Counted from the stretch's first letter, positions 4,724 through 63,430 are shown. The stretch is DNA of 64,000 nt from Coriobacteriales bacterium (GCA_031263105.1 JAISGJ010000173.1:940-64939); one strand, 5' to 3'. Numbers and translations: made by a program. The notes: generated from the letters alone by a model not told the origin.

Positions 4724-4889
4724 TAGAATAGAAGGGCATCGTATGCGTGGGGAGCCGTGGGGCCTTCTCCCGCTCCTTCTCTGCCGTTCGTCGCGACGAA
4801 ACGCCCCGTTTCGCTATGGATTAAGGCGTTGAATATGCGTATCATCTGATGCGGGGATTAGCAAGGGCCTGTTTCAACGAAGGGGTTCC

Positions 4890-46819: not shown

Positions 46820-46848
46820 CCCTGTCCTTTCTGCTCGAACCGTTTATG

Positions 46849-47682
46849 CTATGCGCCAGAGGGCGAGGCTGCTTGCAGGAGGGGGCGAGGAGCCACGTCC
46901 GTGCCATCAAGCATCGAGACAAGCTCGGCCTTCAGCTGCGTGAGGACCTCTGCCAGACGGGGGTCGTCCTGCCGTGCGATAAGGGCATCCACCTTCTCCA
47001 AGGGCGCCGGTCCCTCTGCCTGCAGGGCCTCCATGAACTCCTCCGCGAGCGCAAGGCCGGTGCGGTAGCCCGCATACAGGCGCGCCTTGCGTTCGAAGGC
47101 GACGCGCATCTTGTAGGGAATCTCCTCGAACCTGAACGGCACCTGTTCGTCGGCGCCTTCCACCAGTTCGCTGTGATGGAGCTTCTGCCCCAACAGCCCC
47201 AACGCTATGGCAAAGCCGTAGATCGTCTGCGGCGGCGAGGGAGGGCACCCGGGGATGTAGACGTCGACCGGGAACAGCTTGTCGGTGCCTCCCCAGACGC
47301 AGTAGTTGTCGTGGAATATTCCTCCCGTGCAGCCGCAGGCCCCATAGGAGACCACGAGCTTCGGGTCGGGCGCGCCCTGGTAGGCCCTGACGGCCGGCAT
47401 GCGCATGGAGCGGGTCATGGCCCCCGTATAGACGAGGATGTCGGCGTGGCGGGGGCTCGGGGTGTTCTTGATGCCGAAGCGCTCGACGTCGAACACGGGG
47501 GTTATCGACGAGAATATCTCGATCTCGCATCCGTTGCATCCGCCACAGTCGACACGGTAGAGGTAGATCGAGCGTTTGATGTCGTTGAGCAGGGCGGCCT
47601 TCGCCTTGGCAATGCCTTCGTCCAAGACCATCCTGTCGGGCTGGAACTGCAGGTTCAGCGGAACCTCGCGTTCGAGTATCAT
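46849..47682 (-). CDS. hyfI: [NiFe] hydrogenase small subunit of formate hydrogenlyase (HycG/HyfI, NuoB-like)
   Basis: VDCGGCNGCEIE, SPRHADILVYTG, GACGCTGGIF and IPGCPPSP. Confidence 0.92.
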   Translation of the reverse strand: MILEREVPLNLQFQPDRMVLDEGIAKAKAALLNDIKRSIYLYRVDCGGCNGCEIEIFSSITPVFDVERFGIKNTPSPRHADILVYTGAMTRSMRMPAVRAYQGAPDPKLVVSYGACGCTGGIFHDNYCVWGGTDKLFPVDVYIPGCPPSPPQTIYGFAIALGLLGQKLHHSELVEGADEQVPFRFEEIPYKMRVAFERKARLYAGYRTGLALAEEFMEALQAEGPAPLEKVDALIARQDDPRLAEVLTQLKAELVSMLDGTDVAPRPLLQAASPSGA

Positions 47683-48218
47683 GACGCACCCCCTAGGGAG
47701 CCAAAGCCCTGCTTCGCCCTTTGCGAGTCCCGTTTCTGCTTGCAGCGCGGACAGACCTTGACAAGCCCTGCGGCCTCCCGGGCATCCGGGTCATCGATGA
47801 ACTGCGTGAGTATCCGATACGCGTAATCGACCTCCTTTGCCGGGGCAAAGGGGCTGCCGCACTCAGCGCAGGGCTGAAGCGTGTACATGCATATCTCCTC
47901 CAGGTCGTTCTTGTCCATCACCGCAAGCTCGAATTCCGCAGAAAGCCGCAGCGCCTTGGTCGGGCAGACCTCCTCGCAGCGTCCGCAGTACACGCAGCGC
48001 CCATAGTTGATCGACCAGGAGGTGGTCTGGGCCTGGGGATCGACCACCATCTGGATTGCGTTGGGCGGACAGGCGACGGCGCAGGCGCCGCAGGCCATGC
48101 AGTTGACGAGGTCGTGTTCCGGTTTGCCCCGGGCGTCCTTGGGGCGCTCGATCGGCGCGAACGGGTATTTGACCGTTGCGTTGCCCGTGCGTATGATCCC
48201 TTGCAGTGTCTTGAGCAT
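47679..48218 (-). CDS. hyfH: 2x[4Fe-4S] ferredoxin subunit HycF/HyfH (NuoI-like)
   Basis: CMACGACAVACPP and CVYCGRCEEVCP cluster motifs. Confidence 0.9.
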   Translation of the reverse strand: MLKTLQGIIRTGNATVKYPFAPIERPKDARGKPEHDLVNCMACGACAVACPPNAIQMVVDPQAQTTSWSINYGRCVYCGRCEEVCPTKALRLSAEFELAVMDKNDLEEICMYTLQPCAECGSPFAPAKEVDYAYRILTQFIDDPDAREAAGLVKVCPRCKQKRDSQRAKQGFGSLGGAS

Positions 48219-48233
48219 ATCGAGGCCTCCTCT

Positions 48234-49961
48234 CTAGTATTCCAACGGCGTATGCCGACGGTCCCTGCAGTAGTCCTCCAACTGCCGTTGCGTCAGAACC
48301 TGTTGCTTCCTCTTCTTCACGTCGACGACGGTCACGCGCTCCGTGCACGAATAGCAGGGGTCGAGGCTTCCGACTATCATCGCGGCATCGGAGATCGTGT
48401 TGCCTCTGAACATGTACCGCAGCGCCGGCCAGTTGCTGTAGGTGGAGGCCTTGGCCCGCCAACGATAGCACTTCTGGTTGTTGCCGATCATGCTCCAGTG
48501 CACGTCCTCCCCGCGGGGGGCCTCGGTCCAGCCGACGGCGAAACGATGGGGCTCGTAAGTCCAGTTCTCGTTGAGGACCGGCCCTGCAGGGGCGTTCTCC
48601 AGAAGCTCGGATATGATGTCGAGGCTGTCCATGAACTCGCCGATGCGGACGAGGGTCCTGCCCTTGACGTCGCAGCTGCCTGCGGTGACGGCCTCCCGTC
48701 TGAGGCTCTTGTAGCCGTCGAAGGGATGGCACCACCGGGCGTCACGCGCAAAGCCGCTCCCACGGACCGTGGGGCCCACGGGGCTGTAGTCGCGGGCGAC
48801 CTTCCGGTCGAGGATGCCGACGCCTGCGGTACGGTCGATGAAGTTGGGCGTCGAGAGCAGCTCGTCCACCAGGTTCGCCACCTCGGAGCGCATCTCGTCC
48901 AGATACCTGAACGTCGAGACCTTCTGCTCGGCCAGGATGTCGCGCCTGACACCGCCGATAAGGTTCAGCCCATAGGTCTTGCGGGCCCCCGTGAGCATCT
49001 CAGCCAAGTCCATCGATTTCTCGCGCACGCGGAACATATGGTGAAAACCCGTGTCGAAACCCGTGAAGTGGCACACCAGACCCAGGTTGAGCAGATGCGA
49101 GTGCAGCCGCTCGGTCTCAAGTACGATGCTGCGGATGAACTGCGCGCGCAGGGGGATCTCGATGCCCTGGGCGTGCTCGATGGACTCGGCGTAGGCCACG
49201 GAATGCGCAAAGCCGCAGATGCCGCAGATGCGCTCGGCGAGAAAGGGGACCGCATCGTAGTTCATGCGCGACTCGGCGCACTTCTCCATACCGCGATGCA
49301 CGTAGAACATGCGGTAGTCGGCATCTATGATCTGCTCGCCTTCGACGAAGAGGCGAAAATGCCCCGGCTCGTCGGAGGTGATGTGCAAGGGGCCCATGGG
49401 GATGACGGTCGTCTCCCTGTCGCCCGTGTCCTTCAGGAACTCGTAGTTCTCGACGTCGGTCGTCGGCTGGGGCCGGTACCGGTAGTCCATCGTGTCCTTG
49501 CGCAGCGGATACAGGCCCTGTGGCCAGTCGTCGGGCAGGACCAGGTTGCGGTTGTCGACGATGCCGAGGGCGGTAAGGCCGAACAGGTCTTGGACCTCGC
49601 GCTCGCCCCAGACGACCGCAGGCACCCTATGCGATGCCGAGTAGAACTCGCCGGTGTCCTTCGGGACCTCCACGCGAACCATGCAATAACCGGGATCGGC
49701 CTCTTCCATGGAAAGCACGTAATAGACCGCGAACGCGTCGTTGATAGGACGCTCGTCGTTGCCGACGACGACCGACAGCCAGCCGCCCCGCCCGTAGTAG
49801 AGATGCTCGATGACATCGGGGGCCCTCTCGGGCACGACGTCGAGCACGACCTGGTCGTCGCAGAGCCACTTGACCTCACGGACCGCGCCCGGGAAACGGC
49901 TCTTCGCCTCCCGCACGTGCGACTCGCAGATGCGCAGTCCCTCGTCACTGATCATATTCAC
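48234..49961 (-). CDS. hyfG: [NiFe] hydrogenase large subunit HycE/HyfG (fused NuoC-NuoD-like)
   Basis: The N-terminal metal motif RICGICGFAHS and the C-terminal DPCYSCTERV. 575 aa. Confidence 0.93.
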   Translation of the reverse strand: MNMISDEGLRICESHVREAKSRFPGAVREVKWLCDDQVVLDVVPERAPDVIEHLYYGRGGWLSVVVGNDERPINDAFAVYYVLSMEEADPGYCMVRVEVPKDTGEFYSASHRVPAVVWGEREVQDLFGLTALGIVDNRNLVLPDDWPQGLYPLRKDTMDYRYRPQPTTDVENYEFLKDTGDRETTVIPMGPLHITSDEPGHFRLFVEGEQIIDADYRMFYVHRGMEKCAESRMNYDAVPFLAERICGICGFAHSVAYAESIEHAQGIEIPLRAQFIRSIVLETERLHSHLLNLGLVCHFTGFDTGFHHMFRVREKSMDLAEMLTGARKTYGLNLIGGVRRDILAEQKVSTFRYLDEMRSEVANLVDELLSTPNFIDRTAGVGILDRKVARDYSPVGPTVRGSGFARDARWCHPFDGYKSLRREAVTAGSCDVKGRTLVRIGEFMDSLDIISELLENAPAGPVLNENWTYEPHRFAVGWTEAPRGEDVHWSMIGNNQKCYRWRAKASTYSNWPALRYMFRGNTISDAAMIVGSLDPCYSCTERVTVVDVKKRKQQVLTQRQLEDYCRDRRHTPLEY

Positions 49962-49997
49962 AGCACTTCTCCTATCTGATGCGGCTTGCTCGGCGGC

Positions 49998-51542
49998 TTA
50001 TTCGATAGCGGCAAAGATGTCCTTGAACAGGGGCGCCTCGTGCAATATGCCGGCATCCTGTTGCAAGACGACCTGGGTCGCAGACTCCAGCCCGTACAGG
50101 ATCGGCTGCGGCATCGCGACGCCGAACCAGAGTATGGCAAGCGTCAGGGCAAACTGCGGGAGCAGGGCCATCACCCCCACATCGCCCTTCGGGACGTTCT
50201 CGGGCGCCTTGCCGAGGACAGAGCCCGTCACAACATGCACGCAGGCGGCAATGACGACGGTCAATGCGATACCGAAGACGACGATGATGACAAGATGGCC
50301 CGCCTGGATGCCGCTTATGAAGCCCAGGACCTCGGAGAGGAACATGGCGAAGGGCGGAAAGCCGGCAAGCGCGAAGAAGCCGATCGCCATGAGCACCGCC
50401 GTGACGGGGGCGACCTGGAGTATCCCCTTGACCTTCTTCAGGTCGCGGGTCCCGTATTTGATGAGGACGTTGCCGGAGATGCTGAACAGGAGCGCCTTGG
50501 TGACCCCATGGGTGATGCAGTGGAGCAGGGCCGCCGCAACGCCCAGCGGCCCGCCGAAGCCGAGGCAGAGCGCGACGATGCCGATGTTCTCGCAGGAATG
50601 GTAGGCCAGCTTGCGCTTCAGGTCGTCCTGCGAGAACACCGCGAAAGCGGCAACCACGACAGAGAGCAGGCCGACGACGAGCATGATGGTCTGGGGGAAC
50701 TGCGGGCCGATCGCCTGGACGGCAAGGATGTAGAAGCGGATGATGATGAGCATCGCGCACTTGAGCAGGACCCCCGAGAGCAGCGCAGAGACCGGACTGG
50801 GAGCCTCCGAGTGCGCATCGGGAAGCCAGGTGTGCATCGGGAACAGGCCGGCCTTGGTCCCGAAGCCGATGGCCGCGAACAGGAAGGCGATCTGGATGAT
50901 CATGATGTCGAACTGCGACGCATAGGGCAGAAGCGAGGTCCAGAATATCGCCTGCTGGGGATCGGCCATGACGTCGGCTGCGTTCGCATACACCAGGACG
51001 GTGCCATAGAGCCCGAAGGCGACCCCTGCGGTGCAGACGACGATGTACTTCCAAGCGGCCTCCAACGAGAGCTTCGTGTTGTAGGCACCGACCAGAAACG
51101 CGGTCGCCAGGGTCGTCGCCTCGATTGCAGCCCACATCATGATGATGTTGTTCGACAGCACCACCAGCAGCATGGTGAAGACGAACAGGTTGAAGAACAC
51201 ATAGTACTGCTTGACCTGGCGGGGCCCCATGGCCCCCCTCTTGACGTCATGGCGGATATAGGACAGGGAGTAGAAACCCGTCAGGAAGCCGATGCCGCCT
51301 ATCAGGACGACGAACAGCGAGCCGAGCGCGTCGAGGTAGAACCACAGCCCCAAGGCGTGGATCGGCTCCCCGCTCGACATGACGTCGACGACGAGATAGA
51401 TGCCGAGGGCACAGGTCGAAGCCACAGAGACGAGATGGACGCCTTCGTAGACGACGGTCGGCACCGCCTTCGACGGCAGGAGCGCCATGAGGACGGCGGC
51501 GCAGAGCGGCAACACAAAGAGCGTTACGAGCAAGGAATCCAT
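49998..51542 (-). CDS. hyfF: hydrogenase-4 antiporter-like membrane subunit HyfF (NuoN/M-like)
   Basis: 514-aa polytopic protein with the proton-pump signature (WLPDAHSEAPSPVSALLSG). Confidence 0.88.
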   Translation of the reverse strand: MDSLLVTLFVLPLCAAVLMALLPSKAVPTVVYEGVHLVSVASTCALGIYLVVDVMSSGEPIHALGLWFYLDALGSLFVVLIGGIGFLTGFYSLSYIRHDVKRGAMGPRQVKQYYVFFNLFVFTMLLVVLSNNIIMMWAAIEATTLATAFLVGAYNTKLSLEAAWKYIVVCTAGVAFGLYGTVLVYANAADVMADPQQAIFWTSLLPYASQFDIMIIQIAFLFAAIGFGTKAGLFPMHTWLPDAHSEAPSPVSALLSGVLLKCAMLIIIRFYILAVQAIGPQFPQTIMLVVGLLSVVVAAFAVFSQDDLKRKLAYHSCENIGIVALCLGFGGPLGVAAALLHCITHGVTKALLFSISGNVLIKYGTRDLKKVKGILQVAPVTAVLMAIGFFALAGFPPFAMFLSEVLGFISGIQAGHLVIIVVFGIALTVVIAACVHVVTGSVLGKAPENVPKGDVGVMALLPQFALTLAILWFGVAMPQPILYGLESATQVVLQQDAGILHEAPLFKDIFAAIE

Positions 51543-51551
51543 GAGCGTCCC

Positions 51552-52208
51552 CTAGCCTTTCAGTTCCCTGAGATCGTCGGCATCGAGCGACCCTACGACC
51601 TTGTGGATGCGGACGGCGACTATCGCCATGATGACGACGGCGAAGATGGCATCGGTGGCGATGCCGATCTCGACCAGGCCGGGCGCCTCGGGCGCCAGCA
51701 GCGCAAGCGTCACATGCGAGCCGTTTTCCATAAGGCAATACCCGAAGACCTGCTTGAGGATATTGCGTTGCGTGATGATGCAGGTCAGACCGACGAAGAA
51801 GTGCGCAAGCGACACCGCAAGCGCAGGCTTCACCTCCACGGCGGTCGGCAGCCCGATGCCGTTGACGGCAATGAAGCACAGGAACAGCTCGACTGCCACG
51901 AGGATGATAGCGACGACCGGGCTGATTGCCGAAGGCACCGCCTGCTTTGCGTCGGCCCCTATCTTCCTCAAGGCGAAGAGCATGATGCCCGGCACGAGCA
52001 CCGCCTTGGTGATGAAGGCGGTCACGGCCCAGGTGAAGAGCTCACGAGACCCGGTCGTCACCCCCAATGCCACCAACAGCGCGACCAGGATCATCGACTG
52101 GAGGGAATAGAGCAGAGTGGCCCGTTGGGGCGTCTTGGAAAGCACCACAAGAAGCGACGTGACTATCAGGAGCCCTCCGAGGATGTTCACCGCTAGATAA
52201 CTCGTCAT
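51552..52208 (-). CDS. hyfE: hydrogenase-4 membrane subunit HyfE
   Basis: 218-aa, ~7-TM protein. Its position and size match HyfE (NuoK-related). Confidence 0.85.
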   Translation of the reverse strand: MTSYLAVNILGGLLIVTSLLVVLSKTPQRATLLYSLQSMILVALLVALGVTTGSRELFTWAVTAFITKAVLVPGIMLFALRKIGADAKQAVPSAISPVVAIILVAVELFLCFIAVNGIGLPTAVEVKPALAVSLAHFFVGLTCIITQRNILKQVFGYCLMENGSHVTLALLAPEAPGLVEIGIATDAIFAVVIMAIVAVRIHKVVGSLDADDLRELKG

Positions 52209-52229
52209 GATCCCTCTTTCTCCCCTCTC

Positions 52230-53159
52230 CTATATTCCAAGGACCCAGAACACGAAGCCGAAGACGGCGATGCCGAAGACGGCCCAGGTCTGTCGTCCCA
52301 GGAACTTGAAACGGACACGGGACACGGCGTTCTCGAAAACGGAGCAGACGAAGAAGACAAGGGCCAGCTTGAGCAGATAGACGACGAGGCCGACGACGAG
52401 GGCCACTGCCGTGAGCTCGACGGCGCTTCCGAAGGGGAGGAATATCGCCATGAACCAACTGACCACGAGGATCTGCTTCATGGACATGGCCATCTTGACC
52501 ATCGCAAGGGAAGGGCCGGAGTACTCGGCAAGCGGCCCTTCCTGGATCTCCTGCTCGGCCTCCGCCAGGTCGTAGGGCAGCTTTCCCAGCTCGACATAGC
52601 AGGCCAGCGCGAACGCAGCACCGACGATGACCATGGTGATCGGGTGTGCGACGGAGAGTGACCCTATCGCCTCGCCCATGACGCCCACATTGGTGCTCCC
52701 GGTGGAAAGGGCCGCAATGAACAGGGCGAGCATCATCGAGGGCTCGACAAGGACGCCGATCATCAGCTCGCGGATGCCGCCGACGCCCGCATAGGAAGAG
52801 CCCGAGTCGATCGCCGACAACGAAAAGAAGAAGCGCGGCAACGCCAACAGGTAGATGATCAGGATCACGTCGGCAAGGAACGGCAAGGGGCTGAGCCGCG
52901 TGAGCATGGGCATGCCGAGCGCCAGGACCAGCATGGTGCCCAGGAACAGGGGCGGCATCAGACGATGGACGAAGCTCGACTCCTTCGTATGGAGGTCCTG
53001 GCGCTTGAAGAGCTTGGCGATGTCATAGTAGTCCTGCAGGATCGGCGGGCCCTTGCGCGTATGCATCTTCGCGCGCAGCCAGCGGCCGACGCCCGATACC
53101 AGCGGTGCCAGCACGACGAGCAGAAGGACCTGGGCGCAGGCAATCAGTATCTCGATCAT
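52230..53159 (-). CDS. hyfC: formate hydrogenlyase membrane subunit HyfC/HycD (NuoH-like)
   Basis: RWLRAKMHTRKGPPILQDYYDIAKLFKRQ matches the NuoH/HycD N-terminal signature. Confidence 0.9.
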   Translation of the reverse strand: MIEILIACAQVLLLVVLAPLVSGVGRWLRAKMHTRKGPPILQDYYDIAKLFKRQDLHTKESSFVHRLMPPLFLGTMLVLALGMPMLTRLSPLPFLADVILIIYLLALPRFFFSLSAIDSGSSYAGVGGIRELMIGVLVEPSMMLALFIAALSTGSTNVGVMGEAIGSLSVAHPITMVIVGAAFALACYVELGKLPYDLAEAEQEIQEGPLAEYSGPSLAMVKMAMSMKQILVVSWFMAIFLPFGSAVELTAVALVVGLVVYLLKLALVFFVCSVFENAVSRVRFKFLGRQTWAVFGIAVFGFVFWVLGI

Positions 53160-53171
53160 AGGGCACTCCTC

Positions 53172-55220
53172 CTAGTACGCCAGTACCGACATCGACAGGA
53201 AGACCAGGAGCGCAACGACGATATAGACAAGGTAGACCCGGTAGTTGCCTCCCTCGATCCTCTTGGCCAGGTGCCCCAGCCAGTCGACGAATGCGCCCGT
53301 CGAATCGGCAAGGTATCGATCGCCCTGGGCTTCGGCGGCCTGGGCATCGGCGCCCTGGGCCCCCTTGATCGCCCCCTCGAGCAAGTCGACCAGACGGCCG
53401 GCCTTGCGGGACACCGCCGCGCGAAGCCGATAGAGCGGCCTCATGAACATCTGGACGTCCGCCCCGAAACTCGTGGCGATCATGGGCATTCCCGGCTCAT
53501 GCCGATAGCCGCAGGCCCAAGGCTCCTTCGTGGCATCCACGCCGCCTCGGGCGAACACCATGCGAACCAGCAACGGAATCAGGATGAGGCCGACGAGCAG
53601 GACCGCCAACAAGGGAGTGGAGATGATGTTTCCCATCTCGGGATTGGCGATCAGGGTGCCCTGTGCGACCGCGACGGGGCCTGCGGCCAGCGTCGCAGAG
53701 GCCGCCGCCTGCATGACCGGAGCGACCAGAGGGGCGCCCACCCCCAAGAACACGCAGACGGCGGCCAGCACCACCATGCTCAGCCTCATCGGCACCGGGA
53801 CCTCCCGTGCCTTGCCCGCTGCCTCCGAACGGCTCGCGCCGAGGAAGGTCACCCCATAGGCCTTGACGAAGCAGGTCACGGCAAGGGCGCCCGTGATGGC
53901 AAGGGACACCGCACCGAACCCCGCAAAGAGCTGGATGACGGCGTCGCCTCTGAAGGCCACGTCGAACAGGGCCTGATAGGTGAACCACTCGGACACGAAG
54001 CCGTTGAGCGGCGGTATGGCGGAGATCGCGAGCGAGCCGAGCAGGAAGCACATCGCCGTCACGGGCATCGCGCGGACGAGGCCCCCCATCTTCTCCATGT
54101 CCCTCGTGTGCGTGCTGAACAGCACCGAGCCCGCCCCCAGGAAGAGGAGGGCCTTGAACACCGCGTGGTTGAGCAGGTGGTACAGCCCCGCCATGAGCCC
54201 GAGCGCGGCGAGGAGCGGCTGCTCCAAGGCGATGCCGATGAACCCGATGCCGACACCGAGCAGGATGATGCCGATGTTCTCCACCGAGTGGTACGCAAGC
54301 AGCCGCTTGATGTCGTGCTCGGCCAGCGCGTAGGCGACGCCGAGCACGGACGAGACGGCACCGATGCTCAAAACGAGGATCCCCCACCACAGCTCGCAGC
54401 CGGAGGCGGCAAGGATGTCGAGGCCGACCTTCACGATACCGAAGACACCGATCTTGATCATGCCTCCGGACATGAGCGCCGAGACGTGCGAGGGAGCGGC
54501 AGGGTGCGCCTGGGGCAACCAGGAATGGAAGGGGACCATGCCTGCCTTGCAGCCAAAGCCCAGAAAGGTGAGCACGAACACCAACGAGGCGACGGCCGGG
54601 GCGAACTGCGTGCCACGGAACACCGCGAACTCGAAGCTGCCCGTCACGCCTGCCATGACGAAGAAGGCGACCATGATCATCAGGAAGCCGACGTGGGCCA
54701 TGATCAGGTAGAGGAAGCCTCCGTTGGTCGATTTCTCGTCCTGCTCGATGATCACGAGGAAGTAGGAGGAAAGCGACATCAGCTCGAAGAAGACGAGGAA
54801 CCAGAACGCGTTGTCGACCGTGACCACGAAGTTCATGGAAACGACGAACAGGTTCATGAAGAAGCCGATGGCCCCGATCCCCTTGCCCCTGTACTCGGCC
54901 AGATAGGAGGCGCCGTATATCCACGCCAGGACCGCGAGGAGGTTGATGACCACGAGCAAGAGGCCGGCAAGCGGGCTGAACAACAGCGAGAACGACGCGA
55001 AGGCGAAGGGGGTCGGGATGCTGACGGCAGCCGCCGACCCCAACAGGCTGCCTGCGCCGACGCCCAACATGGCAAGCGACGCCAGGACGCCGAAGATGCT
55101 CGCAAGGCCTTTCGACAGGCCCTCCGAGCGTCCCGTCAGCAAGGCGACGAGGGCGCCGACGACGGAGAGGGCCGCCGAGAACGAGAAGACCGAGGGGGCA
55201 TCGAGGCTCAGAATATCCAT
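53172..55220 (-). CDS. hyfB: formate hydrogenlyase antiporter-like membrane subunit HyfB/HycC (NuoL-like)
   Basis: 682-aa polytopic protein with WLPQAHPAAPSHVSALMSG. The ATG overlaps the hyfA stop. Confidence 0.9.
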   Translation of the reverse strand: MDILSLDAPSVFSFSAALSVVGALVALLTGRSEGLSKGLASIFGVLASLAMLGVGAGSLLGSAAAVSIPTPFAFASFSLLFSPLAGLLLVVINLLAVLAWIYGASYLAEYRGKGIGAIGFFMNLFVVSMNFVVTVDNAFWFLVFFELMSLSSYFLVIIEQDEKSTNGGFLYLIMAHVGFLMIMVAFFVMAGVTGSFEFAVFRGTQFAPAVASLVFVLTFLGFGCKAGMVPFHSWLPQAHPAAPSHVSALMSGGMIKIGVFGIVKVGLDILAASGCELWWGILVLSIGAVSSVLGVAYALAEHDIKRLLAYHSVENIGIILLGVGIGFIGIALEQPLLAALGLMAGLYHLLNHAVFKALLFLGAGSVLFSTHTRDMEKMGGLVRAMPVTAMCFLLGSLAISAIPPLNGFVSEWFTYQALFDVAFRGDAVIQLFAGFGAVSLAITGALAVTCFVKAYGVTFLGASRSEAAGKAREVPVPMRLSMVVLAAVCVFLGVGAPLVAPVMQAAASATLAAGPVAVAQGTLIANPEMGNIISTPLLAVLLVGLILIPLLVRMVFARGGVDATKEPWACGYRHEPGMPMIATSFGADVQMFMRPLYRLRAAVSRKAGRLVDLLEGAIKGAQGADAQAAEAQGDRYLADSTGAFVDWLGHLAKRIEGGNYRVYLVYIVVALLVFLSMSVLAY

Positions 55221-55807
55221 TATCTGCTCCTGAGAACGTAAGGGTCAGCGACGAAATCGCCGAGAACAGCAGCTCGTCTGTGCTTCTCGGCGCTGATCCT
55301 CTCCCTGCTCTCCTCGTCGATGAGCCGTATGGACCGCGTCGGACAGACGCTGACACAGGACGGGCCCTCTTCCTTGAACGAGCAGAGGTCGCATTTGACG
55401 GCACAGGCATAGACGCCGATCTCCCACTGGAGGATCGGGCTCGTCGAGGCGACAAAGGTGGGGGTGGGATACTCGATCCCCGCCACGCCGGAGATCGGGG
55501 TGCCGCCCATGTGGACCGCCCCGAAGGGACAGGCGATCGCGCAGAGCTTGCAGCCCACACAGGTCTTCTCGTCGACGGCCACGCAGCCGTCCTCGCACTG
55601 CCGGATGGCATTGACAGGGCAGACCTTAACACAGGGAGCGCCCATGCAGTGGTGGCAGGAGACGGTGGCGGATATGTCGCGGGTCTTGACCAGGCTCAGG
55701 CGCGGATTGCCCTGACGTCCCACCTGCTCATGTGCCGTGCTGCACGCCAAAAGGCAGGTTCCGCACCCGATACAGGTATTGGGGTTAACAACTATGAATT
55801 GGCTCAT
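55220..55807 (-). CDS. hyfA: 4x[4Fe-4S] ferredoxin HyfA/HycB
   Basis: CIGCGTCLLAC, CHHCMGAPCVKVCP, CVGCKLCAIACPFGA and CDLC...CVSVCP. Confidence 0.88.
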   Translation of the reverse strand: MSQFIVVNPNTCIGCGTCLLACSTAHEQVGRQGNPRLSLVKTRDISATVSCHHCMGAPCVKVCPVNAIRQCEDGCVAVDEKTCVGCKLCAIACPFGAVHMGGTPISGVAGIEYPTPTFVASTSPILQWEIGVYACAVKCDLCSFKEEGPSCVSVCPTRSIRLIDEESRERISAEKHRRAAVLGDFVADPYVLRSR

Positions 55808-55893
55808 TCCTCACCTCGTTCGCTTTGATGCGTCAACCTTCGGCTGCGCCCGTGTCGGGGGCGCAGCCCTCCATCGTGCGTCTGGCCTCTGCG

Positions 55894-56424
55894 TCACACG
55901 GCACTGAGCACCATGTCCGCCGCCTGGGCCGCCGCATGCTGCTTCTTGCGTGAAAGCCTCTCCATCTGCTCTCCGTCCACATATGCGAGCGCATCGGTCA
56001 GACAGGCCCGTATGCATGCGGGGCCGTCCTCACGGGTCTCGCACAGGTCGCATTTGATGACGACGGGCTTGCGGGCGGCGCGGTACTCGAACGCACCGCC
56101 GGACACCGTCGTGTTCGAAGGAACGACATCGACCGCCCCGAAGGGACAGGCAAGGATGCAGCTGCTGCAGCCGATGCAGCGGTCCTGGCGTATCTTCACC
56201 ATCTCGTCACTGATATACAGGGCGTTCTGTGGACAGGCTGCGGCACAAGGCGCATCCTGGCAGTGGTGGCAGCCGACCGGTGCCGATATCCTGTAGGTCT
56301 TGACAAGCGTCAGGCGAGGAACAGGGACCCCGTCGATCGGGTCGTGCTCCATCATGCATGCGGCCATGCAGGTCCCACAGCCTATGCAGCGCCTTGAATC
56401 AGCCACGACGAATCTGTTGCTCAT
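55894..56424 (-). CDS. second HycB-like 4x[4Fe-4S] ferredoxin (tandem paralogue)
   Basis: CIGCGTCMAAC, CHHCQDAPCAAACP, CIGCSSCILACPFGA and CDLC...CIRAC. ATG 56424 (MSNRFVV) is preceded by GGTGGAGAG. Confidence 0.8.
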   Translation of the reverse strand: MSNRFVVADSRRCIGCGTCMAACMMEHDPIDGVPVPRLTLVKTYRISAPVGCHHCQDAPCAAACPQNALYISDEMVKIRQDRCIGCSSCILACPFGAVDVVPSNTTVSGGAFEYRAARKPVVIKCDLCETREDGPACIRACLTDALAYVDGEQMERLSRKKQHAAAQAADMVLSAV

Positions 56425-56580
56425 CTTCTCTCCACCTCTTCTTCCTGCCTTCTCTGACATTCTTCTGCTCACGTCCTGCAGCCATAGGGCCTGCAGTGTC
56501 GAGCCGAGCGGCCATTTCTCCGTTCTCTCCACTGTTTCTTGGAAATTACCGCTGGGTGCAATGGTCGCGCGACTTCGGAT

Positions 56581-56604
56581 GCCCCTGTCACCTGATGGGG
56601 GGGC
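56581..56604. promoter_or_regulatory. 24-nt motif GCCCCTGTCACCTGATGGGGGGGC shared with the fdhF upstream region
   Basis: 21/24 identical to 60321-60344. Lies about 160 bp upstream of the first hyf-operon gene. Self-complementary ends. Confidence 0.45.
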
Positions 56605-56808
56605 AAATCAAAAAGAACAGAAAGATACCCTGTTTTTGGGCCGAGGCCGGGAAACGCCGCAGGGACACCCTCTTTGAGGGTACATCCGAGCCGCTGTCGA
56701 ATCGAAATGACCCCGCTTCAGGACTAACCATGTGAGGGATAATGATGTAACCGGCACCTGCCGCAATCGGCACTGCCCACTCTCATGGAAAGCGAGCCAC
56801 ACAGAGAA

Positions 56809-57975
56809 ATGACGGCCTATCTGGACAACGCCTCGACGACGAGACCGTATCCCGAAGTGATCGACGTCGTCCACACGGTGCTGCGGGATCATTTTGGGAA
56901 CCCTTCCTCGCTGCATCGCAAAGGGGTCGAGGCAAAAAGGATACTGGAGCTCAGCCGCACGACCATAGCCCGGGCCCTGGAGGTCGAACCCGAGGAGGTC
57001 TTCTTCACCTCGGGAGGCACGGAATCCAACAACCTGGCAATAGCCGGTGCCAGCCTGGCACGCAGGGACCGCCAAAACCGCATCATAACCACGGAGCTCG
57101 AACATCCCTCGGTGACCAAGCCCGTCCGCAACCTCAGGCGGGAGGGCTGGGACGTCGGATACCTGCATGCGGCGGGTGGCGCACTCGACTTGGAGCAGCT
57201 AACCGAGCTGCTGGATCCTGCCACGGCCCTTGTCTCCGTCATGGGCGTGCAGAACGAGCTGGGCTACCGCTTCCCGCTGGAGCAGGTCTCACGGATACGG
57301 ACGGAGCGTGCCCCGCAGGCCCTTCTGCATACCGACGCGGTGCAGCTGTTCTGCAAGCTCCCGCTGCTGCCTCACAGGGTCGGCATCGACCTCGCAAGCC
57401 TGAGCGCACACAAGATAGGCGGCCCCAAGGGCATCGGCGCCCTTTACGTGCGACGGGGGACCAGACTGTTCACCACGGCCTTTGGCGGAGGGCAGGAGAA
57501 AGGGCTGCGCTCGGGCACCGAGGCGCTCCCTTTGATAGCGGGCTTCGGCAAAGCCGTCGAGATCGCTTCGAGGGAACGGGAGAAGACCGCCTGTCTGGCC
57601 CTTGAGCTGAAGGCCTACCTCATAGGACGTCTGCGGGCGGGCTTCGAGCAGGTCATCGTCAACTCCCGTGAGGACGGCTCGCCCTATATCGTCAACTTCG
57701 CCCTTCCGGGCGTAGACAGCAGCAAGGCCCTCCTCCTTTTGAGCGACAAGGGCGTCTTCCTGTCGACGGCATCTGCCTGCGAGTCGAATCACGCCACGGT
57801 GCCACCGGGCACCTGGCGCAAGAAGCACCCTTTGGCCCTGCAGCTCGCGGGCATCCCCAAGCACATCGGCAAGAGCGTCTTTCGCGTCAGTTTCTTTGCT
57901 GGGAACACCCGGGCGGACATCGACCGCCTCATCGACGCATTGCAGCAGACAACACACGCTGTCACGACGACATGA
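56809..57975 (+). CDS. cysteine desulfurase (NifS/IscS, class V aminotransferase)
   Basis: YLDNASTTRP, GNPSSLH, the PLP-lysine SLSAHKIGGPKGIGALYV, and the active-site Cys in STASACES. The alternative upstream ATG is at 56785. Confidence 0.88.
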   Translation: MTAYLDNASTTRPYPEVIDVVHTVLRDHFGNPSSLHRKGVEAKRILELSRTTIARALEVEPEEVFFTSGGTESNNLAIAGASLARRDRQNRIITTELEHPSVTKPVRNLRREGWDVGYLHAAGGALDLEQLTELLDPATALVSVMGVQNELGYRFPLEQVSRIRTERAPQALLHTDAVQLFCKLPLLPHRVGIDLASLSAHKIGGPKGIGALYVRRGTRLFTTAFGGGQEKGLRSGTEALPLIAGFGKAVEIASREREKTACLALELKAYLIGRLRAGFEQVIVNSREDGSPYIVNFALPGVDSSKALLLLSDKGVFLSTASACESNHATVPPGTWRKKHPLALQLAGIPKHIGKSVFRVSFFAGNTRADIDRLIDALQQTTHAVTTT

Positions 57976-57981
57976 CGCGGA

Positions 57982-58023
57982 CACAGAAGTGGGCGGCGCA
58001 TCGGTGCGCCGCCCACTTCTGTG
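57982..58023. terminator. bidirectional terminator hairpin (19-bp perfect stem, TCGG loop)
   Basis: CACAGAAGTGGGCGGCGCA-TCGG-TGCGCCGCCCACTTCTGTG, between the convergent cysteine desulfurase and fdhF genes. Confidence 0.75.
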
Positions 58024-58047
58024 CCGCTCTATGTGAGAGTCGGGCGC

Positions 58048-60240
58048 TCAGGCCGTGACCAGATCGGCCTGTGGCACCGGGGCCTGCTCCTGGGGCTGCG
58101 CCTCTTGGTACAGACGGCCCCTGAGGTCCAGGTACAGCTCCTGCAGATGGCGCTCGGCCCAAAGCTGGTCCTCGATGCCCTCCACCTGACAGGCGCTGAA
58201 CTTGTCCTCGGGGGTACCCGAGAGCGGATCGGTCTGGTGCATGGTCAGGTCGTTGCACTTCCCTATCCACCACTGGTAGGTCATGTAGACGGTGCCCTTG
58301 TTGCAGCGGTCGGTGACGTCGGCACGGCTCATGACCTTGCCGCGCCGCGAGTACACCCACACGAGCTGCTCCTGCTCGATGCCGCGCGCCTCGGCGTCAT
58401 CGGGATGGATCGTCACATAGCCCGGCTCCTCCGCCAGCGAGCTCAAGGCCTTGCAGTTGCCGGTCATGGAGCGGCAGGAATAGTGCCCCACTTCCCGGAC
58501 GGTGCACAGCACCAGCGGGTAGCCATCGTCCGGCATCTCCGTCGGGGCGATGTGGTCGTGGGCGACCAGCAGCATCCTGCCGTCCGGCTTGTTGAACTTT
58601 CCTCCGAGGTAGAGGTTGGGAGAGCCGGGGTGGTCCTCGGTCGGGATCGGCCACTGTGCGTAGCCGGTGCCCTCCATGCGCTCATAGGTCGCACCCGCGA
58701 AGTTCGGGCACAGCGAGCGGATCTCGTCCCATATCTCCTTCGTGTCGTTGTAGTGCATGGGGTAGCCCATGCGGGTCGAGAGATCCGCGAATATCTCCCA
58801 GTCATGACGGCACTCTTCCTTAGGCGGCACGACGGCGGTGAAGCGCTGGAAGGTGCGGTCGGATGCCGTGAAGACGCCGTCGTGCTCCCCCCAGGACGTG
58901 CCGGGGAACACCACGTCGGCCAGCGCGGTGGTCTGGGTCATGAAGATGTCCTGGCTGATGAAGAACTCGAGGTTCTCCAAGGTCTCCTTCATGTCGCCGG
59001 AGTCGGGCTCGGTCTGCAACGGGTCCTCCCCGAAGTTGTAGAAGGCCTTTATCTTCCCCTCCTTCACCCCGTGCGGCAGGTCGGTGAGCTTGAAGCCGGG
59101 CTCCAGCAGCAGCTGCTCCTCCGGGACGCCCCACGCCTTGGCGAACTTCTCGCGCATGGCGGGGTCCTCCACCTTCTGATACCCGGGATACAGGCTCGGC
59201 CACATGCCCATGTCGCAGCTTCCCTGCACGTTGTTCTGGCCACGGACGGGGGCAAGGCCGCAGTTGGGACGCCCGATCTGGTTGGTGATCGTGGCCAAGG
59301 CCGCTATGGTATGGACGGTCTTGACGCCTTGTTTCTGCTGGGTGACCCCCATGCCCCAGCCGATGATGGCGTTCTCGGCCGTGGCATACATGCGAACGGC
59401 CTCGCGCGCAAGCGCAGGCTCGATTCCGGTGATCTCCTGCGTCGCCTCGGGCGTGTACTTCTTGATCGTCTCCCACCACTCGTCGAAGCCGTTAGAGTGC
59501 GCGTCGACAAAGACGCGGTCTATGAGGCCGTCGTTGACCGCGATGTTGCAGAACGTGTTCATCATGGCGAGGTTGCAGCCGTTTTTGATGGGGAGGTACA
59601 GATCGGCGATCCGGGCCGTCTCGATGACGCGGGGGTCGGCGACGATGATCTTGGCGCCCTTCTCCTTGGCCTTCACGATGCGACGGGAGACGATCGGGTG
59701 CGACGCAGAGGGATTGTAGCCGAAGAGGAAGACGCAGTCCGCGTTCTCCATCTGCGGGATGGAGAGGGTCATGGCGCCGCTGCCGACGGTGTCCATCAGG
59801 CCGATGACCGAAGGGCCGTGACAGGTGCGCGCGCAGTTGTCGATGTTGTTGTTGCCGATACATGCCCGCGTGAACTTCTGCATGACGTAGTTCGCCTCGT
59901 TGCCAGGTCCGCGCGACGAGCCGGTGAGCATGATGGAGCGGGGCCCATACGTCTTCTTGATGCGCACGAGGTTCTCGGCTGTGAAGTCAAGCGCCTCGTC
60001 CCACGAGACACGCTCGAGAGGGGCCCCTTTCTTGCGGCGTATCATAGGATGCAGGATGCGGGGCACGAGTATATTGGTGTCGTTGATAAAGTCGAATCCG
60101 TAATAGCCCTTGAGGCAGAGCTCGCCCTCGTTGGTTATGCCGTCGAGGGGCTCGACCCCCACGACCTTCCCGTTCTCCGCCAGCAAATTGAGTTTGCAGC
60201 CTGCCCCGCAATACGGACAGACTGCCCATGCCTTTTCCAT
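58048..60240 (-). CDS. fdhF: formate dehydrogenase H catalytic subunit (FdhF), cysteine-type
   Basis: Collinear with E. coli FdhF (VCPYCGAGCKLNL, LCLKGYYGFDFINDT, GSSRGPGNEANYVMQKF). The position of E. coli Sec140 is Cys (CARTCHGPSV, codon TGT at 59821-59823). Confidence 0.93.
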   Translation of the reverse strand: MEKAWAVCPYCGAGCKLNLLAENGKVVGVEPLDGITNEGELCLKGYYGFDFINDTNILVPRILHPMIRRKKGAPLERVSWDEALDFTAENLVRIKKTYGPRSIMLTGSSRGPGNEANYVMQKFTRACIGNNNIDNCARTCHGPSVIGLMDTVGSGAMTLSIPQMENADCVFLFGYNPSASHPIVSRRIVKAKEKGAKIIVADPRVIETARIADLYLPIKNGCNLAMMNTFCNIAVNDGLIDRVFVDAHSNGFDEWWETIKKYTPEATQEITGIEPALAREAVRMYATAENAIIGWGMGVTQQKQGVKTVHTIAALATITNQIGRPNCGLAPVRGQNNVQGSCDMGMWPSLYPGYQKVEDPAMREKFAKAWGVPEEQLLLEPGFKLTDLPHGVKEGKIKAFYNFGEDPLQTEPDSGDMKETLENLEFFISQDIFMTQTTALADVVFPGTSWGEHDGVFTASDRTFQRFTAVVPPKEECRHDWEIFADLSTRMGYPMHYNDTKEIWDEIRSLCPNFAGATYERMEGTGYAQWPIPTEDHPGSPNLYLGGKFNKPDGRMLLVAHDHIAPTEMPDDGYPLVLCTVREVGHYSCRSMTGNCKALSSLAEEPGYVTIHPDDAEARGIEQEQLVWVYSRRGKVMSRADVTDRCNKGTVYMTYQWWIGKCNDLTMHQTDPLSGTPEDKFSACQVEGIEDQLWAERHLQELYLDLRGRLYQEAQPQEQAPVPQADLVTA

Positions 60241-60320
60241 CGATGACCTCCTAGTTTAAAACCTACTCCTATTCGAGACCGAACTTCTGACGCTGTGCCA
60301 TGGTAGCCTCATGCCGAAAC

Positions 60321-60344
60321 GCCCCTGTCCCCTGATGCAGGGGC
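60321..60344. promoter_or_regulatory. 24-nt motif GCCCCTGTCCCCTGATGCAGGGGC shared with the hyf upstream region
   Basis: 21/24 identical to 56581-56604. Lies 81 bp upstream of the fdhF ATG. The ends GCCCCTG/CAGGGGC are self-complementary. Confidence 0.45.
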
Positions 60345-60670
60345 ACTTTTGGACAATTTCTATGGTTTCTTGAGAACCAAGCCCTTCCGCACACCTTGCC
60401 GATGTCCCCCCGATAGGGGTATACTGCCCCACAGGCTCTCACGGTTTCGCTGCATCAAAGCAAGGGGCATGGCGTGATTCCTGCAACTTCTCCCCCTTTG
60501 CCGGGCACAACCGCACAAAGCCGCACCTACTCCGACTATTCGAGAAAATACCCTGTTTCAGGGACAGCAGCAGCGTCATAAAAATGAGAGAATCCTCATC
60601 TGGGGATTGCGTGGCCCCATCCGAGGGCCGCGCAGCTGTCTAGTATCTCCTCTCTATTCCCAAAGCAGGG

Positions 60671-62221
60671 TTGGCATCGTCGATTGACACAGAAGTCCGT
60701 TGGCTCAAAGACTGGGAGAATGTGTTGAACAAAGAGATCAAGGACTCCCTGACACCGTACCTTGCCTTGCTTCCCTACGTGATAGGGATGTCGATCCCGC
60801 AATCGGCCGTCTCGTTGGTCGAGTACGAGGCCGTCGGAGGGCTTTCTTCGAACCTCGTGGGCGTCGCGACGTCCTTCGGCACAGCCTTGGTGATGCTGGC
60901 CCTCTTCGTTTGCACCGTGCGCCTGAAGCACTGGAAGAAGAACCTGGAGCAGAGGAGCGTCTACGGGGCGATCATCATCCTGGCCACTGCATCGCTTCTC
61001 CTCGACAAGGACATGGTCACAAACGTGCAGCTCACCCCCCTGCTCCGCTCGCTCTTCTTTTTCGTCTGCCTCACTGCGGCCTGCTGGTGCTCCTTTTGGT
61101 GGCTGCGCCAGCTGGCGCACACCTCACGTGTCGCAGCCGCCTTGTTCGCCTTCGGCTCGATCGTGCTCAGCGAGGCGCTGACCTTCGTCCTCCAGCTGCT
61201 CCCGCCGTCCACCCGTTGCTCGGTCTTCGCCCTCCTTGCCCTTTCGCAGGTCATCCTTATCATGTTCGTCAGAAACCAGGATGCCATATCGGATGTGCTG
61301 CCCTACGCGAGCGACGGGTTCTTTCATTTTGTGAAAGTGAACATATCGAACAGCTCGTTCCTCGTCACCATAGCAATCGGGGTCTATTGCGTCGCCGTCC
61401 CCTTGGGGATGTCGCATGCCTATTACGAGAACCTGGGGTTCCTGTTCATCGTGCCCTTCCATGTCGTCTTCCTCGCGCTGGTGACGGCCCTTTCGATAAC
61501 CTGGATCGTCCTGATCGGCCTGGGGAAGGAATCCGCCTACACCACCCTGTTCTGGATCGCGGCCCAGCTGATCCTTGCGCTGGGCATCGTGTCCTATGCC
61601 CTTTTCCCGGCAGAGCCGCAGGTCGGTGCCCTTCTCACGCGGCTGGTGACGACGTTCGTCTGGGCCTTTATCTGGTTCACGACCATCGCGTTCATCAACC
61701 ACGGCTGGCGCAACCCCTATTACTACGTGGTCTCGGGCTGGTTCGCCTTGGTGATCCCCCAGAACCTCGGCTACCTTATCGCCGACAGCGCACTTCAGGT
61801 CTCGGGCAGCCACCAGGTCATACTGGCGGTCATGAGCCTGCTTATCCTGGTCTCGTCGCAGGTGTTCTTCGTCCGACTGTTCAAGACGTCGAGCAGTCCC
61901 GACCCCGACCATCCCCCTGCGATGCAGGAGCAGAGGCCCCTGCAGAACTTCATGGGCCTGAACGACGAGGCGGACTTCCCCGTCGAGCACAGGAAGAACC
62001 TGATGGAGGTGAAGCTCGCAGCCCTGGGAAAGATGTTCGCACTGACCGAACGCGAGGTCGAGATACTCTCGTTGTTCGCACTCGGCTACACCCAGAAGAA
62101 GGTCGCGAACGAGCTCTGCCTTTCGACGGACACGGTCCACACCTACGTCAAGCGCATCTACAAGAAGACGGACTTCCACTCGCGCAACGACATCCTGGAC
62201 TTCATGCAGGAGCATCTGTAG
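60671..62221 (+). CDS. membrane-anchored LuxR-family transcriptional regulator (about 10 TM helices + C-terminal HTH)
   Basis: The C-terminus LTEREVEILSLFALGYTQKKVANELCLSTDTVHTYVKRIYKK is a LuxR/GerE HTH. The N-terminal 400 aa are polytopic. The start codon is uncertain (the track uses TTG 60671). Confidence 0.8.
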   Translation: MASSIDTEVRWLKDWENVLNKEIKDSLTPYLALLPYVIGMSIPQSAVSLVEYEAVGGLSSNLVGVATSFGTALVMLALFVCTVRLKHWKKNLEQRSVYGAIIILATASLLLDKDMVTNVQLTPLLRSLFFFVCLTAACWCSFWWLRQLAHTSRVAAALFAFGSIVLSEALTFVLQLLPPSTRCSVFALLALSQVILIMFVRNQDAISDVLPYASDGFFHFVKVNISNSSFLVTIAIGVYCVAVPLGMSHAYYENLGFLFIVPFHVVFLALVTALSITWIVLIGLGKESAYTTLFWIAAQLILALGIVSYALFPAEPQVGALLTRLVTTFVWAFIWFTTIAFINHGWRNPYYYVVSGWFALVIPQNLGYLIADSALQVSGSHQVILAVMSLLILVSSQVFFVRLFKTSSSPDPDHPPAMQEQRPLQNFMGLNDEADFPVEHRKNLMEVKLAALGKMFALTEREVEILSLFALGYTQKKVANELCLSTDTVHTYVKRIYKKTDFHSRNDILDFMQEHL

Positions 62222-62280: not shown

Positions 62281-63231
62281 CTATCCGTCCTCCTGGGGGC
62301 TGCGCAGCAGCAGCCGCATGGAGGGGCCGCACAGCACCAGCGCGGTGGCGAGGTTGTACAGCAGCATCGCAACGAGCAGGCCCTGTGGAGGAAGGCCCTC
62401 CAGGCCCAATGCCGCAGCCGCCTGCCCGAGCGAGCCTGCGAAGGCCCATACATCGACGTTGAAGGCTGCGGCCTGCTCGCCGAGACGACCCTTCAGGGCC
62501 TGACGGTCGAGCGTCGTCCCTGGGACGGCATTGATGACGATCAGCTGCTCGGTGTGCCCTCCGCCGAGCGTCACCGAGCTCCCGTGCTCCCCTATCAGGG
62601 AAAGCCGCTGCACGGGGGTGCCCAGCAGGACGCTTCCGCTCACGCTCAGGGCGTCTGCCCGCTTCGAGATGCGCAGGATGCCGGCCTCGCTGACGGGAAC
62701 CCCCATATCCTCGACCAGCGCGACGATACGGTCAAGGGCCGGCCCTGTGCCGACCAGCTCAAGGATGCGCCCCAGCTTGTCGTTGGCACCGCAGCCGGAC
62801 GCCTCGCCGTGCGCATGGTCGTCGGTATGGCCGCCTATGGGGACACCGGCCCTCTGCAGCCCCTTCAGGAAGTCCTCCAGCGGCAGGTCGCAGCCGTTCA
62901 GCACGAACGCGACCCAGAGCGCCAGCGTTCCCCCTGCGGCATCGGGACGGCGCCCCGACGCGTCGGTGGGGCCGAGGGGAGGCTGAGCGGCACCGCCTGC
63001 GGCGCTGCTCGCGGCATCATCGACGCTCCCGCTCGTGGCACCGCCTGCAATGCCGCGCCCGTCGATACAGGAGGCCACCACCGTTGCGGTCGTTGGGACG
63101 TAGGCGGAATCCAAGGTGTCTCGTATCGTCTGCGACAGGCTTCCCTCGCCCTCGCCGTCAGGAACGATGCCGCCTGTGGCAAAGGGGCCGAGGGGGCCGA
63201 GGTCGCTGACGACAGGTGCTTCCTGCTTCAT
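62281..63231 (-). CDS. hypothetical protein (no family recognised)
   Basis: ATG 63231 is preceded by GGAG 5 nt upstream. The codon usage looks coding. Conserved-looking SCIDGR and GGHTDDHAHGEASGCGANDK segments suggest a metal or active site but are not assignable. Confidence 0.55.
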   Translation of the reverse strand: MKQEAPVVSDLGPLGPFATGGIVPDGEGEGSLSQTIRDTLDSAYVPTTATVVASCIDGRGIAGGATSGSVDDAASSAAGGAAQPPLGPTDASGRRPDAAGGTLALWVAFVLNGCDLPLEDFLKGLQRAGVPIGGHTDDHAHGEASGCGANDKLGRILELVGTGPALDRIVALVEDMGVPVSEAGILRISKRADALSVSGSVLLGTPVQRLSLIGEHGSSVTLGGGHTEQLIVINAVPGTTLDRQALKGRLGEQAAAFNVDVWAFAGSLGQAAAALGLEGLPPQGLLVAMLLYNLATALVLCGPSMRLLLRSPQEDG

Positions 63232-63339
63232 GGGTGCTCCGTTCTGCTTCAGGGGATACCGGGAGACTCGGAGCATACTCGTATGGCACGCGACGCTGAC
63301 CCTGTTTGAGGGGATATCGCCCTTCCTTTTACAGGTGAT

Positions 63340-63430
63340 TCATGCCCGACCCGTCGGCCTGTCCGGGAATGTGCCGCATGCATGCCCGACCTATGCCGGA
63401 TGCCGCATGCATGCCCCGGCCTATGCCGGA
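63340..63430. repeat. 2-3 tandem ~30-bp repeats (TGCCGCATGCATGCCCSGMCCTATGCCGGA)
   Basis: Copies at 63372-63400 and 63401-63430, plus a degenerate copy at 63340-63368. They overlap the stop of the rhodanese-like gene. Confidence 0.7.

Follow-up and report, generated by a model that had tools for sequence, protein, structure and literature searches.

What controls the formate hydrogenlyase (FHL) genes in a stretch of DNA where neither fhlA nor a sigma-54 promoter is visible? The question is raised by 64 kb from an uncultured Coriobacteriales bacterium (GCA_031263105.1 JAISGJ010000173.1:940-64939), the whole of which is called here the window. Two units are concerned, fdhF, which encodes a Cys-type formate dehydrogenase H of 730 aa (58048-60240, minus strand), and the operon fer1-fer2-hyfB-hyfC-hyfE-hyfF with further hydrogenase genes (45936-56424 as far as examined, minus strand). 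A preliminary description had pointed to a 24-nt motif shared by the two upstream regions and had proposed that it marks a control of FHL other than by FhlA, either as a protein operator or as an RNA hairpin in the leaders. The comparative data fit the protein operator. Judged by sequence comparison, the sites form a transcription-factor operator common to the promoters of fdhF, of the hyf-type operon and of a gene resembling cadmium carbonic anhydrase (CDCA-like), with a probably small and clade-specific regulon that in relatives also takes in operons for a cysteine desulfurase and for sulfur or selenium carriers. The binder is most likely the membrane LuxR-type regulator encoded next to fdhF and divergent from it (516 aa from a TTG, start uncertain; 60671-62221, plus strand). 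With a confidence slightly above even, we favor a model in which this LuxR, with a putative 10-12 transmembrane (TM) segments, binds the operators and activates the FHL genes in place of FhlA and sigma-54.

Pattern scans and six-frame signature scans bear out the lack of a visible FhlA circuit in the window. The sigma-54 promoter TGGCAC-N5-TTGCW has no match anywhere in the window, and a loose form has just one in the three intergenic regions described below, on the strand opposite fdhF. In the six-frame translation, none of the enhancer-binding-protein signatures GAFTGA, ESELFGH, and GESGTGKE is found. Both results support the proposal of a non-FhlA control. A sigma-54 promoter at fdhF was rejected, the TGGCAC that follows the -10 having no TTGC partner.

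One palindromic site in three intergenic regions

The two 24-mers, GCCCCTGTCACCTGATGGGGGGGC (56581-56604) and GCCCCTGTCCCCTGATGCAGGGGC (60321-60344), are identical at 21 of 24 positions and have the same orientation relative to their own genes, both on the minus strand, just as first described. In gene orientation they read TGCCCCCCCATCAGGTGACAGGGGC (hyf) and TGCCCCTGCATCAGGGGACAGGGGC (fdhF), 156 nt upstream of the start of fer1 (56424) and 80 nt upstream of that of fdhF (60240), respectively. With GCCCCTGTCNCCTGATG and up to two mismatches, these are the only matches in the window (0.10 expected by chance; two matches attained in one of 100 shuffles). A second shared element, ATACCCTGTTTNNGGG, recurs where it had been reported, at 56625-56640 and 60548-60563. 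It had been taken as a separate element, which it is not: 24-mer and second element align gap-free and are versions of one motif (side by side, GTCCCTGAAACAGGGTAT vs. GCCCCTGCATCAGGGGAC). The gap-free alignment of 22 sites yields an imperfect palindrome of ~20 bp, TGyCCCyn-AWC-AGGGkAYa, with CC-N7-GG invariant (positions C5, C6, G14, and G15, to which the invariant A18 is added) and, in the best copies, a CCCTG-N3-CAGGG dyad. Some sites occur in either orientation. The shared motif is real, but its 24-nt boundaries are not supported and the self-complementary GC ends are specific to this genome.

The degenerate pattern CCCNNNNNNRGGKKAYW has seven matches in the window (0.64 expected), all within three intergenic regions. 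Altogether there are eight sites in the window, and scores of at least 13 with a position weight matrix (PWM) are confined to the fer1(hyf)/csd region, the fdhF/luxR region, and the region upstream of the CDCA-like gene (csd being a cysteine desulfurase-like gene). A PWM trained without the window sites still gives a score of at least 12 to seven of the eight, with the distal fdhF site (60401-60425) under the cut-off and one borderline match elsewhere in the window (4838-4859, score 12.1). The motif is shared far beyond chance. Copies beyond those of the preliminary description are at 56665-56686, 60401-60425, and 63294-63318 (degenerate pattern) and at 63321-63342 (PWM scan). Recent duplication as the sole cause of the likeness between fdhF and hyf is improbable: site, -10, and start region are alike, but the spacers between site and -10 are unrelated.

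Judged by the window and ~100 kb of related contigs, a chance likeness, or an interspersed repeat (of the repetitive extragenic palindrome or miniature inverted-repeat transposable element kind) with no link to formate metabolism, is very improbable. Nearly all strong sites there are intergenic and beside FHL-linked genes; the sites are conserved across genomes with diverged flanks; and shuffled sequences give far fewer matches.

Conservation in related contigs and the question of an RNA hairpin

The close relatives are metagenome contigs (designated by L numbers; JGI, NCBI, and Logan) annotated as Coriobacteriales, with FdhF identities of 80-95%. In reference genomes, the closest FdhF proteins are 71-78% identical (Adlercreutzia, Denitrobacterium, Gordonibacter, Collinsella), and their operons have other upstream sequences from which the motif is absent, so that they can serve as outgroup only. 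The outgroup comprises 80 fdhF loci of other Coriobacteriia (Collinsella, Adlercreutzia, and others; 914 kb). The window sequence itself occurs only in DNA runs of a termite-gut metagenome, and no RNA runs carrying this stretch were found. The exact-protein match of fer1 comes from the same strain only, with an identical intergenic region, and is uninformative for conservation.

Phylogenetic footprinting of the fdhF and hyf upstream regions, a check suggested with the first description, shows the sites kept in related termite-gut contigs. In relatives with FdhF identities of 80-92%, the core of the 24-mer is kept upstream as TGCCCCTCTATCAGGGGACA, TGTCCCCGTATCAGGGGACA, TGCCCCTCCAACAGGGGACA, and TGCCCCTTTATGAGGGGACA. 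The 3′ GGGGC end is not retained in those relatives, and neither L082 nor L084 has kept the outer GC ends. The second element, as CCCnAAAACAGGGTATTTT, is better conserved than the 24-mer. The upstream regions are diverged and rich in indels (L082, L083, L084, L087), and the sites form conserved islands within them; besides the sites, the ribosome-binding site stands out in the alignments, as does a short box that follows the proximal site after ~20 nt.

Sites with scores of at least 15 number 38 in 167 kb (window and nine related contigs) against none in the 914 kb of the outgroup, a count made circular in part by the use of some of these sites in training the matrix. A non-circular test comes from three of the nine contigs, which were retrieved through LuxR orthologues of 75, 70, and 54% identity (L209, L210, L211). 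All three have fdhF or hyf genes within ~7 kb and high-scoring sites in the FHL upstream regions, and in L209 and L211 there is a pair as at hyf in the window, with a TATTTT-type upstream site and a GACA-type site 37-39 bp further on. In a metagenome scan with CCCNNAAACAGGGTATYTT, the matches listed were chance ones from unrelated, mostly low-GC environments, the pattern being too short for that purpose. The only one among the matches listed with two sites and a similar G+C content (L140) is an unrelated glycosyltransferase locus and was set aside.

The same alignments bear on the RNA alternative, in which the 24-mer would be a hairpin in the 5′ leaders (attenuator, stabilizer, or riboswitch-like). 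In each of the two window copies, pairing of GCCCC with GGGGC is possible, the fdhF copy has a folding energy of -17.3 kcal/mol, and a consensus scan calls the upstream-type site terminator-like. Against this, there is no covariation: pairing is kept in 73.5% of the cells vs. 70.8% in shuffles (82 of 500 shuffles equal it), and G-to-T changes in the right arm occur without compensation in the left arm. The folds are weak and inconsistent (z-scores from -2.5 to +0.09, with structures that differ among orthologues), and the outer GC ends are missing from L082 and L084. There is no Rfam match at the gathering score, and at E up to 10 none overlaps the motif. The occurrence of some sites in either orientation, and a distance to the start codon that varies while the spacing to a -10-like hexamer is fixed (see below), also speak against a leader structure. 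An RNA hairpin is thus very improbable, and this half of the earlier proposal is not borne out. The reading of CCCTGAAACAGGGTATTTT as an intrinsic terminator was likewise rejected, the stem being down to 3 bp in orthologues with nothing upstream to terminate.

Promoter geometry and the adjacent membrane LuxR

In 13 of 13 promoters examined, a -10-like hexamer is present 18-20 nt downstream of a GACA-type proximal site (TACCAT, TACTAT, TATTAT, GACCAT, AACCAT, GATACT, GATAAT, AATCAT, TATGCT twice, and TACGCT; L211 and L210 have weaker ones). The interval between proximal site and start codon is variable, from 51 to 253 nt. No canonical -35/-10 pair on the gene strand was found in the promoter scans. 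With the hexamer at -12 to -7, the dyad center falls at -41 to -43; with a start position deduced in this way, the proximal site would be centered near -42, as in a lux box. Class II activators occupy a position around -42, as LuxR does at the lux box. A MerR-type reading of the 19-20 nt spacing was rejected: it would need a dyad within the spacer, and the one here covers the -35 and the DNA upstream of it.

Upstream of the hyf-type operon, the proximal site TGCCCCCCCATCAGGTGACAGG (56584-56605, minus strand; PWM 19.0, leave-out 16.7) contains the 24-mer, and the hexamer of the putative promoter, GACCAT (56561-56566, minus strand), is 19 nt downstream. Orthologues of this site occur in L082, L084, L087, L209, and L211, and the hexamers that align with GACCAT at the same spacing are AACCAT (L082), GATACT (L084), and GATAAT (L087). 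The upstream site CGGCCCAAAAACAGGGTATCTT (56622-56643, minus strand), which corresponds to the second element, has its center 38 bp from that of the proximal site, and a spacing of 37-39 bp between upstream and proximal sites recurs in six genomes. The third site of the hyf/csd intergenic region, ACACCCTCTTTGAGGGTACATC (56665-56686, plus strand), has an orthologue in L082 (10609-10633).

At fdhF, the proximal site TGCCCCTGCATCAGGGGACAGG (60324-60345, minus strand; PWM 21.0, leave-out 18.5) contains the other 24-mer and is a conserved island in the alignment of the window with L083 and L082. The hexamer of the putative fdhF promoter, TACCAT (60300-60305, minus strand), is 20 nt downstream and aligns with TACTAT (L083) and TATTAT (L082). 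The distal site ATACCCCTATCGGGGGGACATC (60401-60425, minus strand) scores on both strands and is kept in L083 (712-733) and L082 (6789-6810). The strongest site, TGTCCCTGAAACAGGGTATTTT (60545-60566, minus strand; PWM 27.7), is the second element in the fdhF/luxR divergent region; the L082 copy is identical and the L083 copy differs at two positions. Upstream of the CDCA-like gene, the proximal site ATCCCCTCAAACAGGGTCAG (in gene orientation; 63294-63318, minus strand) has TATGCT 18 nt downstream (63272-63277), an arrangement also present in L082 and L210, and the second site CCTTCCTTTTACAGGTGATTCA (63321-63342, plus strand) has an orthologue in L082 (4057-4078).

Two further observations concern the fdhF/luxR region. 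A promoter-like match on the plus strand, TTGCCG-18-TATACT (60396-60425), is aimed at luxR and overlaps the distal operator site, so that luxR autoregulation is possible; in L209, a strong site is present ~155 nt upstream of its luxR. There is also a direct repeat, TCTCGAATAG..GGAGTAGGT in gene orientation (60260-60280 and 60524-60547), with CTATTCGAGA found twice. One copy is just before the fdhF ribosome-binding site and the other just after the strongest site, so that they flank the proximal and distal sites; the repeat is much weaker in L082 and L083.

The LuxR-type protein has a GerE helix-turn-helix (HTH) domain (PF00196) at residues 458-510 (E = 1.8e-12), preceded at residues 30-400 by about ten or more hydrophobic segments in a Kyte-Doolittle scan of all five orthologues, a scan that does not fix the exact number of helices. 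This layout is common to the five orthologues, and their recognition helix hardly varies. Among solved structures, the closest DNA-binding domains are those of VraR, DesR, NarL, and DosR. Such domains bind inverted repeats as dimers. At E < 1e-20, there are 12 homologues among 5.8 billion proteins, and nearly all members of the orthogroup that were retrieved come from JGI metagenome samples belonging to a single accession series. In L082, L083, L086, L087/L088, L209, L210, and L211, no more than a few genes separate the orthologue from fdhF or hyf. By tblastn, an orthologue is present at every motif-bearing locus with enough flank and at none of the 80 outgroup loci. The divergent LuxR, already named in the preliminary description as the only regulator nearby, is the best candidate.

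In the favored model, a dimer of the C-terminal NarL/GerE-type HTH of LuxR would bind the palindromes. One site would lie ~42 bp upstream of the transcription start, over a weak -35, and one to three more would lie further upstream; in operon promoters, the first of these would be 37-39 bp away. Bound in this way, LuxR would activate transcription by the housekeeping sigma factor, and its membrane domain would probably sense formate or a related signal. Activation is presumed here from the precedent of the family.

Several points weigh against this model. The pattern behind the -10 calls, nAnn[A/C]T or TAnnnT, is loose, and L211 and L210 have poor hexamers. The specificity of the PWM is circular in part, the L209, L210, and L211 sites and the leave-out test being exempt. 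Presence of LuxR and membership of the clade are phylogenetically confounded. Two further points, a possible extended -10 in the upstream-type sites and a Crp-like gene in L210, each lead to another reading of the same sites.

The upstream-type sites always have TATTTT or TATCTT aimed at the FHL genes, and GnTAnnnT is an extended -10 form of actinobacteria. If TATTTT were such an extended -10, the proximal site would be downstream of a start. The same regulator could then act as a repressor: GGGTATTTT, at one end of the upstream-type site, would be the true promoter, extended -10-like, and the regulator, bound at that site and at the 24-mer site 38 bp downstream (~+24), would block or loop out the promoter until freed by a signal. 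The 37-39 bp spacing kept in six genomes agrees with such an arrangement. In the fdhF regions of the window and of L083, however, ~220 bp separate the upstream-type site from the proximal site and ~300 bp separate it from the ATG, and in the CDCA-like promoters the proximal site has no TATTTT, yet has TATGCT at the usual spacing. The characterized TM-LuxRs, moreover, are activators (PMC9734109). We consider repression unlikely.

Alternatively, the sites could be the operator of some other transcription factor encoded elsewhere (for example, of the Crp/Fnr type or a redox regulator), LuxR being a mere neighbor. The link between LuxR and the sites is an indirect one, and in L210 a Crp-like gene heads a csd-fdhF operon with two sites upstream. 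No Crp-like gene adjoins the sites in the window or in the contigs other than L210, and the usual Crp/Fnr site (14-16 bp) is shorter than the 20-bp CC-N7-GG dyad. An orthologue of LuxR, by contrast, is never more than a few genes away from the sites, although the gene order takes at least five different forms, and each related locus examined that has a member of this 12-member orthogroup also has sites. To a factor other than LuxR we would give only a small chance.

Gene order, partner genes, and comparison with known systems

In most Coriobacteriia, as in L084, L085, L087, and L211, the FHL genes form a single operon, fer1-fdhF-fer2-hyfB, continuing into the hydrogenase genes. In L209, the order is fdhF-fer1-fer2-hyfB. 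In the window and in L082, fdhF is separated and has its own upstream region, so that the two motif-bearing regions of the window are the promoters of a unit that is single elsewhere. The ferredoxin genes ahead of hyfB run from 56424 to 55894 and from 55807 to 55220 (minus strand). In L082 (10784-11397), two open reading frames (ORFs) of 41 and 157 aa are called for the first ferredoxin, and the ORF of the second has only 134 aa, which may reflect frameshifts or assembly errors.

Between the hyf operon and fdhF, and divergent from the former, is the csd gene, for a class-V aminotransferase that resembles cysteine desulfurases or selenocysteine lyases (56785-57975, plus strand). Its homologue adjoins the FHL genes in L082, L086, L087, L209, L210, and L211. 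In relatives, the partners of csd include TusA/DsrE and Se_S_carrier genes with sites upstream (L210 2082-4193; L211 8642-12179), and the L211 region has in addition HGD-D and BcrAD_BadFG genes. The constant company of csd with FHL genes, together with the TusA/DsrE and Se_S_carrier partners, suggests that sulfur or selenium is supplied for the formate dehydrogenase cofactor.

A weak SECIS_3 match is present inside fdhF (59768-59826, minus strand; 29.6 bits, with the gathering score at 63, and E = 0.0011); it directly follows the catalytic codon, a Cys codon in the window (ARTCHGPS). In L211, fdhF has an in-frame TGA at the catalytic position, and in L210, selA and selB adjoin the LuxR gene. 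The SECIS_3-like stretch may be the remnant of a selenocysteine ancestor.

The CDCA-like gene (62281-63231, minus strand) likely starts at the ATG at 63231, with GGAG upstream, the longest ORF running from 63276. The match to PF18484 (cadmium carbonic anhydrase repeat) is weak (30 bits vs. a cut-off of 29.2). With its two upstream sites, the gene is kept beside FHL genes in L082, L084, L087, and L210, and it could encode a carbonic-anhydrase-like partner of formate hydrogenlyase.

In Adlercreutzia-type relatives, a different palindrome, GTAGTGCAATCGTACTAC-like, is found upstream of fer1 (L001 ~5005-5025, L002, L003, L004), and these loci have a different small divergent regulator gene upstream of the operon. 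The change of both palindrome and regulator points to FHL control having been swapped between Coriobacteriia lineages. Formate hydrogenlyase, a central H2-producing step of gut fermentations, would then be under different local regulators in different Coriobacteriia. A fuller scenario is tentative, its chances being somewhat short of even. A termite-gut lineage of Coriobacteriia would have replaced the FhlA/sigma-54 circuit by a membrane LuxR that senses formate (or CO2, H2, or pH) and activates, from lux-box-like sites at -42, a dedicated regulon of formate dehydrogenase, hyf-type hydrogenase, zeta-type (CDCA-like) carbonic anhydrase, and sulfur- or selenium-mobilizing enzymes. Genes of carbonic-anhydrase-like and of sulfur/selenium-trafficking proteins would thereby be tied to the same control.

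In gut Coriobacteriia, the metabolism of drugs, diet, and hormones is in large part governed by membrane-embedded LuxRs. If the fuller scenario is true, the sites would define an operator and a promoter architecture for the first time in the whole TM-LuxR family, with its dozens of paralogues per Eggerthella genome. The locus is a clean case for DNA recognition by such regulators: it combines a single orthogroup with ~40 aligned sites, its promoter geometry is fixed, and the candidate ligand is simple.

As in the FhlA/sigma-54 system of E. coli, an fdhF unit and a hydrogenase operon share upstream sites for one dedicated regulator. Here, however, the sites would be at about -42 and not in a distant upstream activating sequence, and the candidate regulator is from an unrelated family. 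With the lux box (Vibrio fischeri luxI) and with NarL and DosR operators, the sites share a dyad of ~20 bp and the regulator shares the HTH superfamily; the deduced center near -42 over a poor -35 would be a further likeness. The half-site (T/G)(A/T)CCC(C/T) is reminiscent of the NarL heptamer TACYYMT and of GGGAC in the DosR box. The sites differ in sequence, and each promoter has several of them, including a pair whose 37-39 bp spacing is conserved. The regulator is embedded in the membrane and lacks both a receiver domain and an acyl-homoserine-lactone domain.

The closest parallels are DadR, CadR, and HcdR of Eggerthella lenta, substrate-specific activators of adjacent genes (PMC9734109). 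LuxRs with 10-12 TM segments are common in Coriobacteriia, often beside genes of Mo- or flavin-dependent enzymes (Dong et al. 2022, PMC9734109); that paper gives no operator and calls the mechanism unclear, and our literature search turned up no later paper on operators of 10-12-TM LuxRs. As in DadR, CadR, and HcdR, a large polytopic membrane domain precedes a C-terminal GerE/LuxR HTH in the regulator of the window, and its gene is beside a molybdoenzyme cluster in Coriobacteriia. The targets differ: catechol dehydroxylase or flavin reductase there, and fdhF, a hyf-type hydrogenase, and accessory genes here. The locus is, in sum, read as a TM-LuxR module, a known kind of system, with the added benefit that a multi-site operator and a promoter geometry can be read from the sequence.

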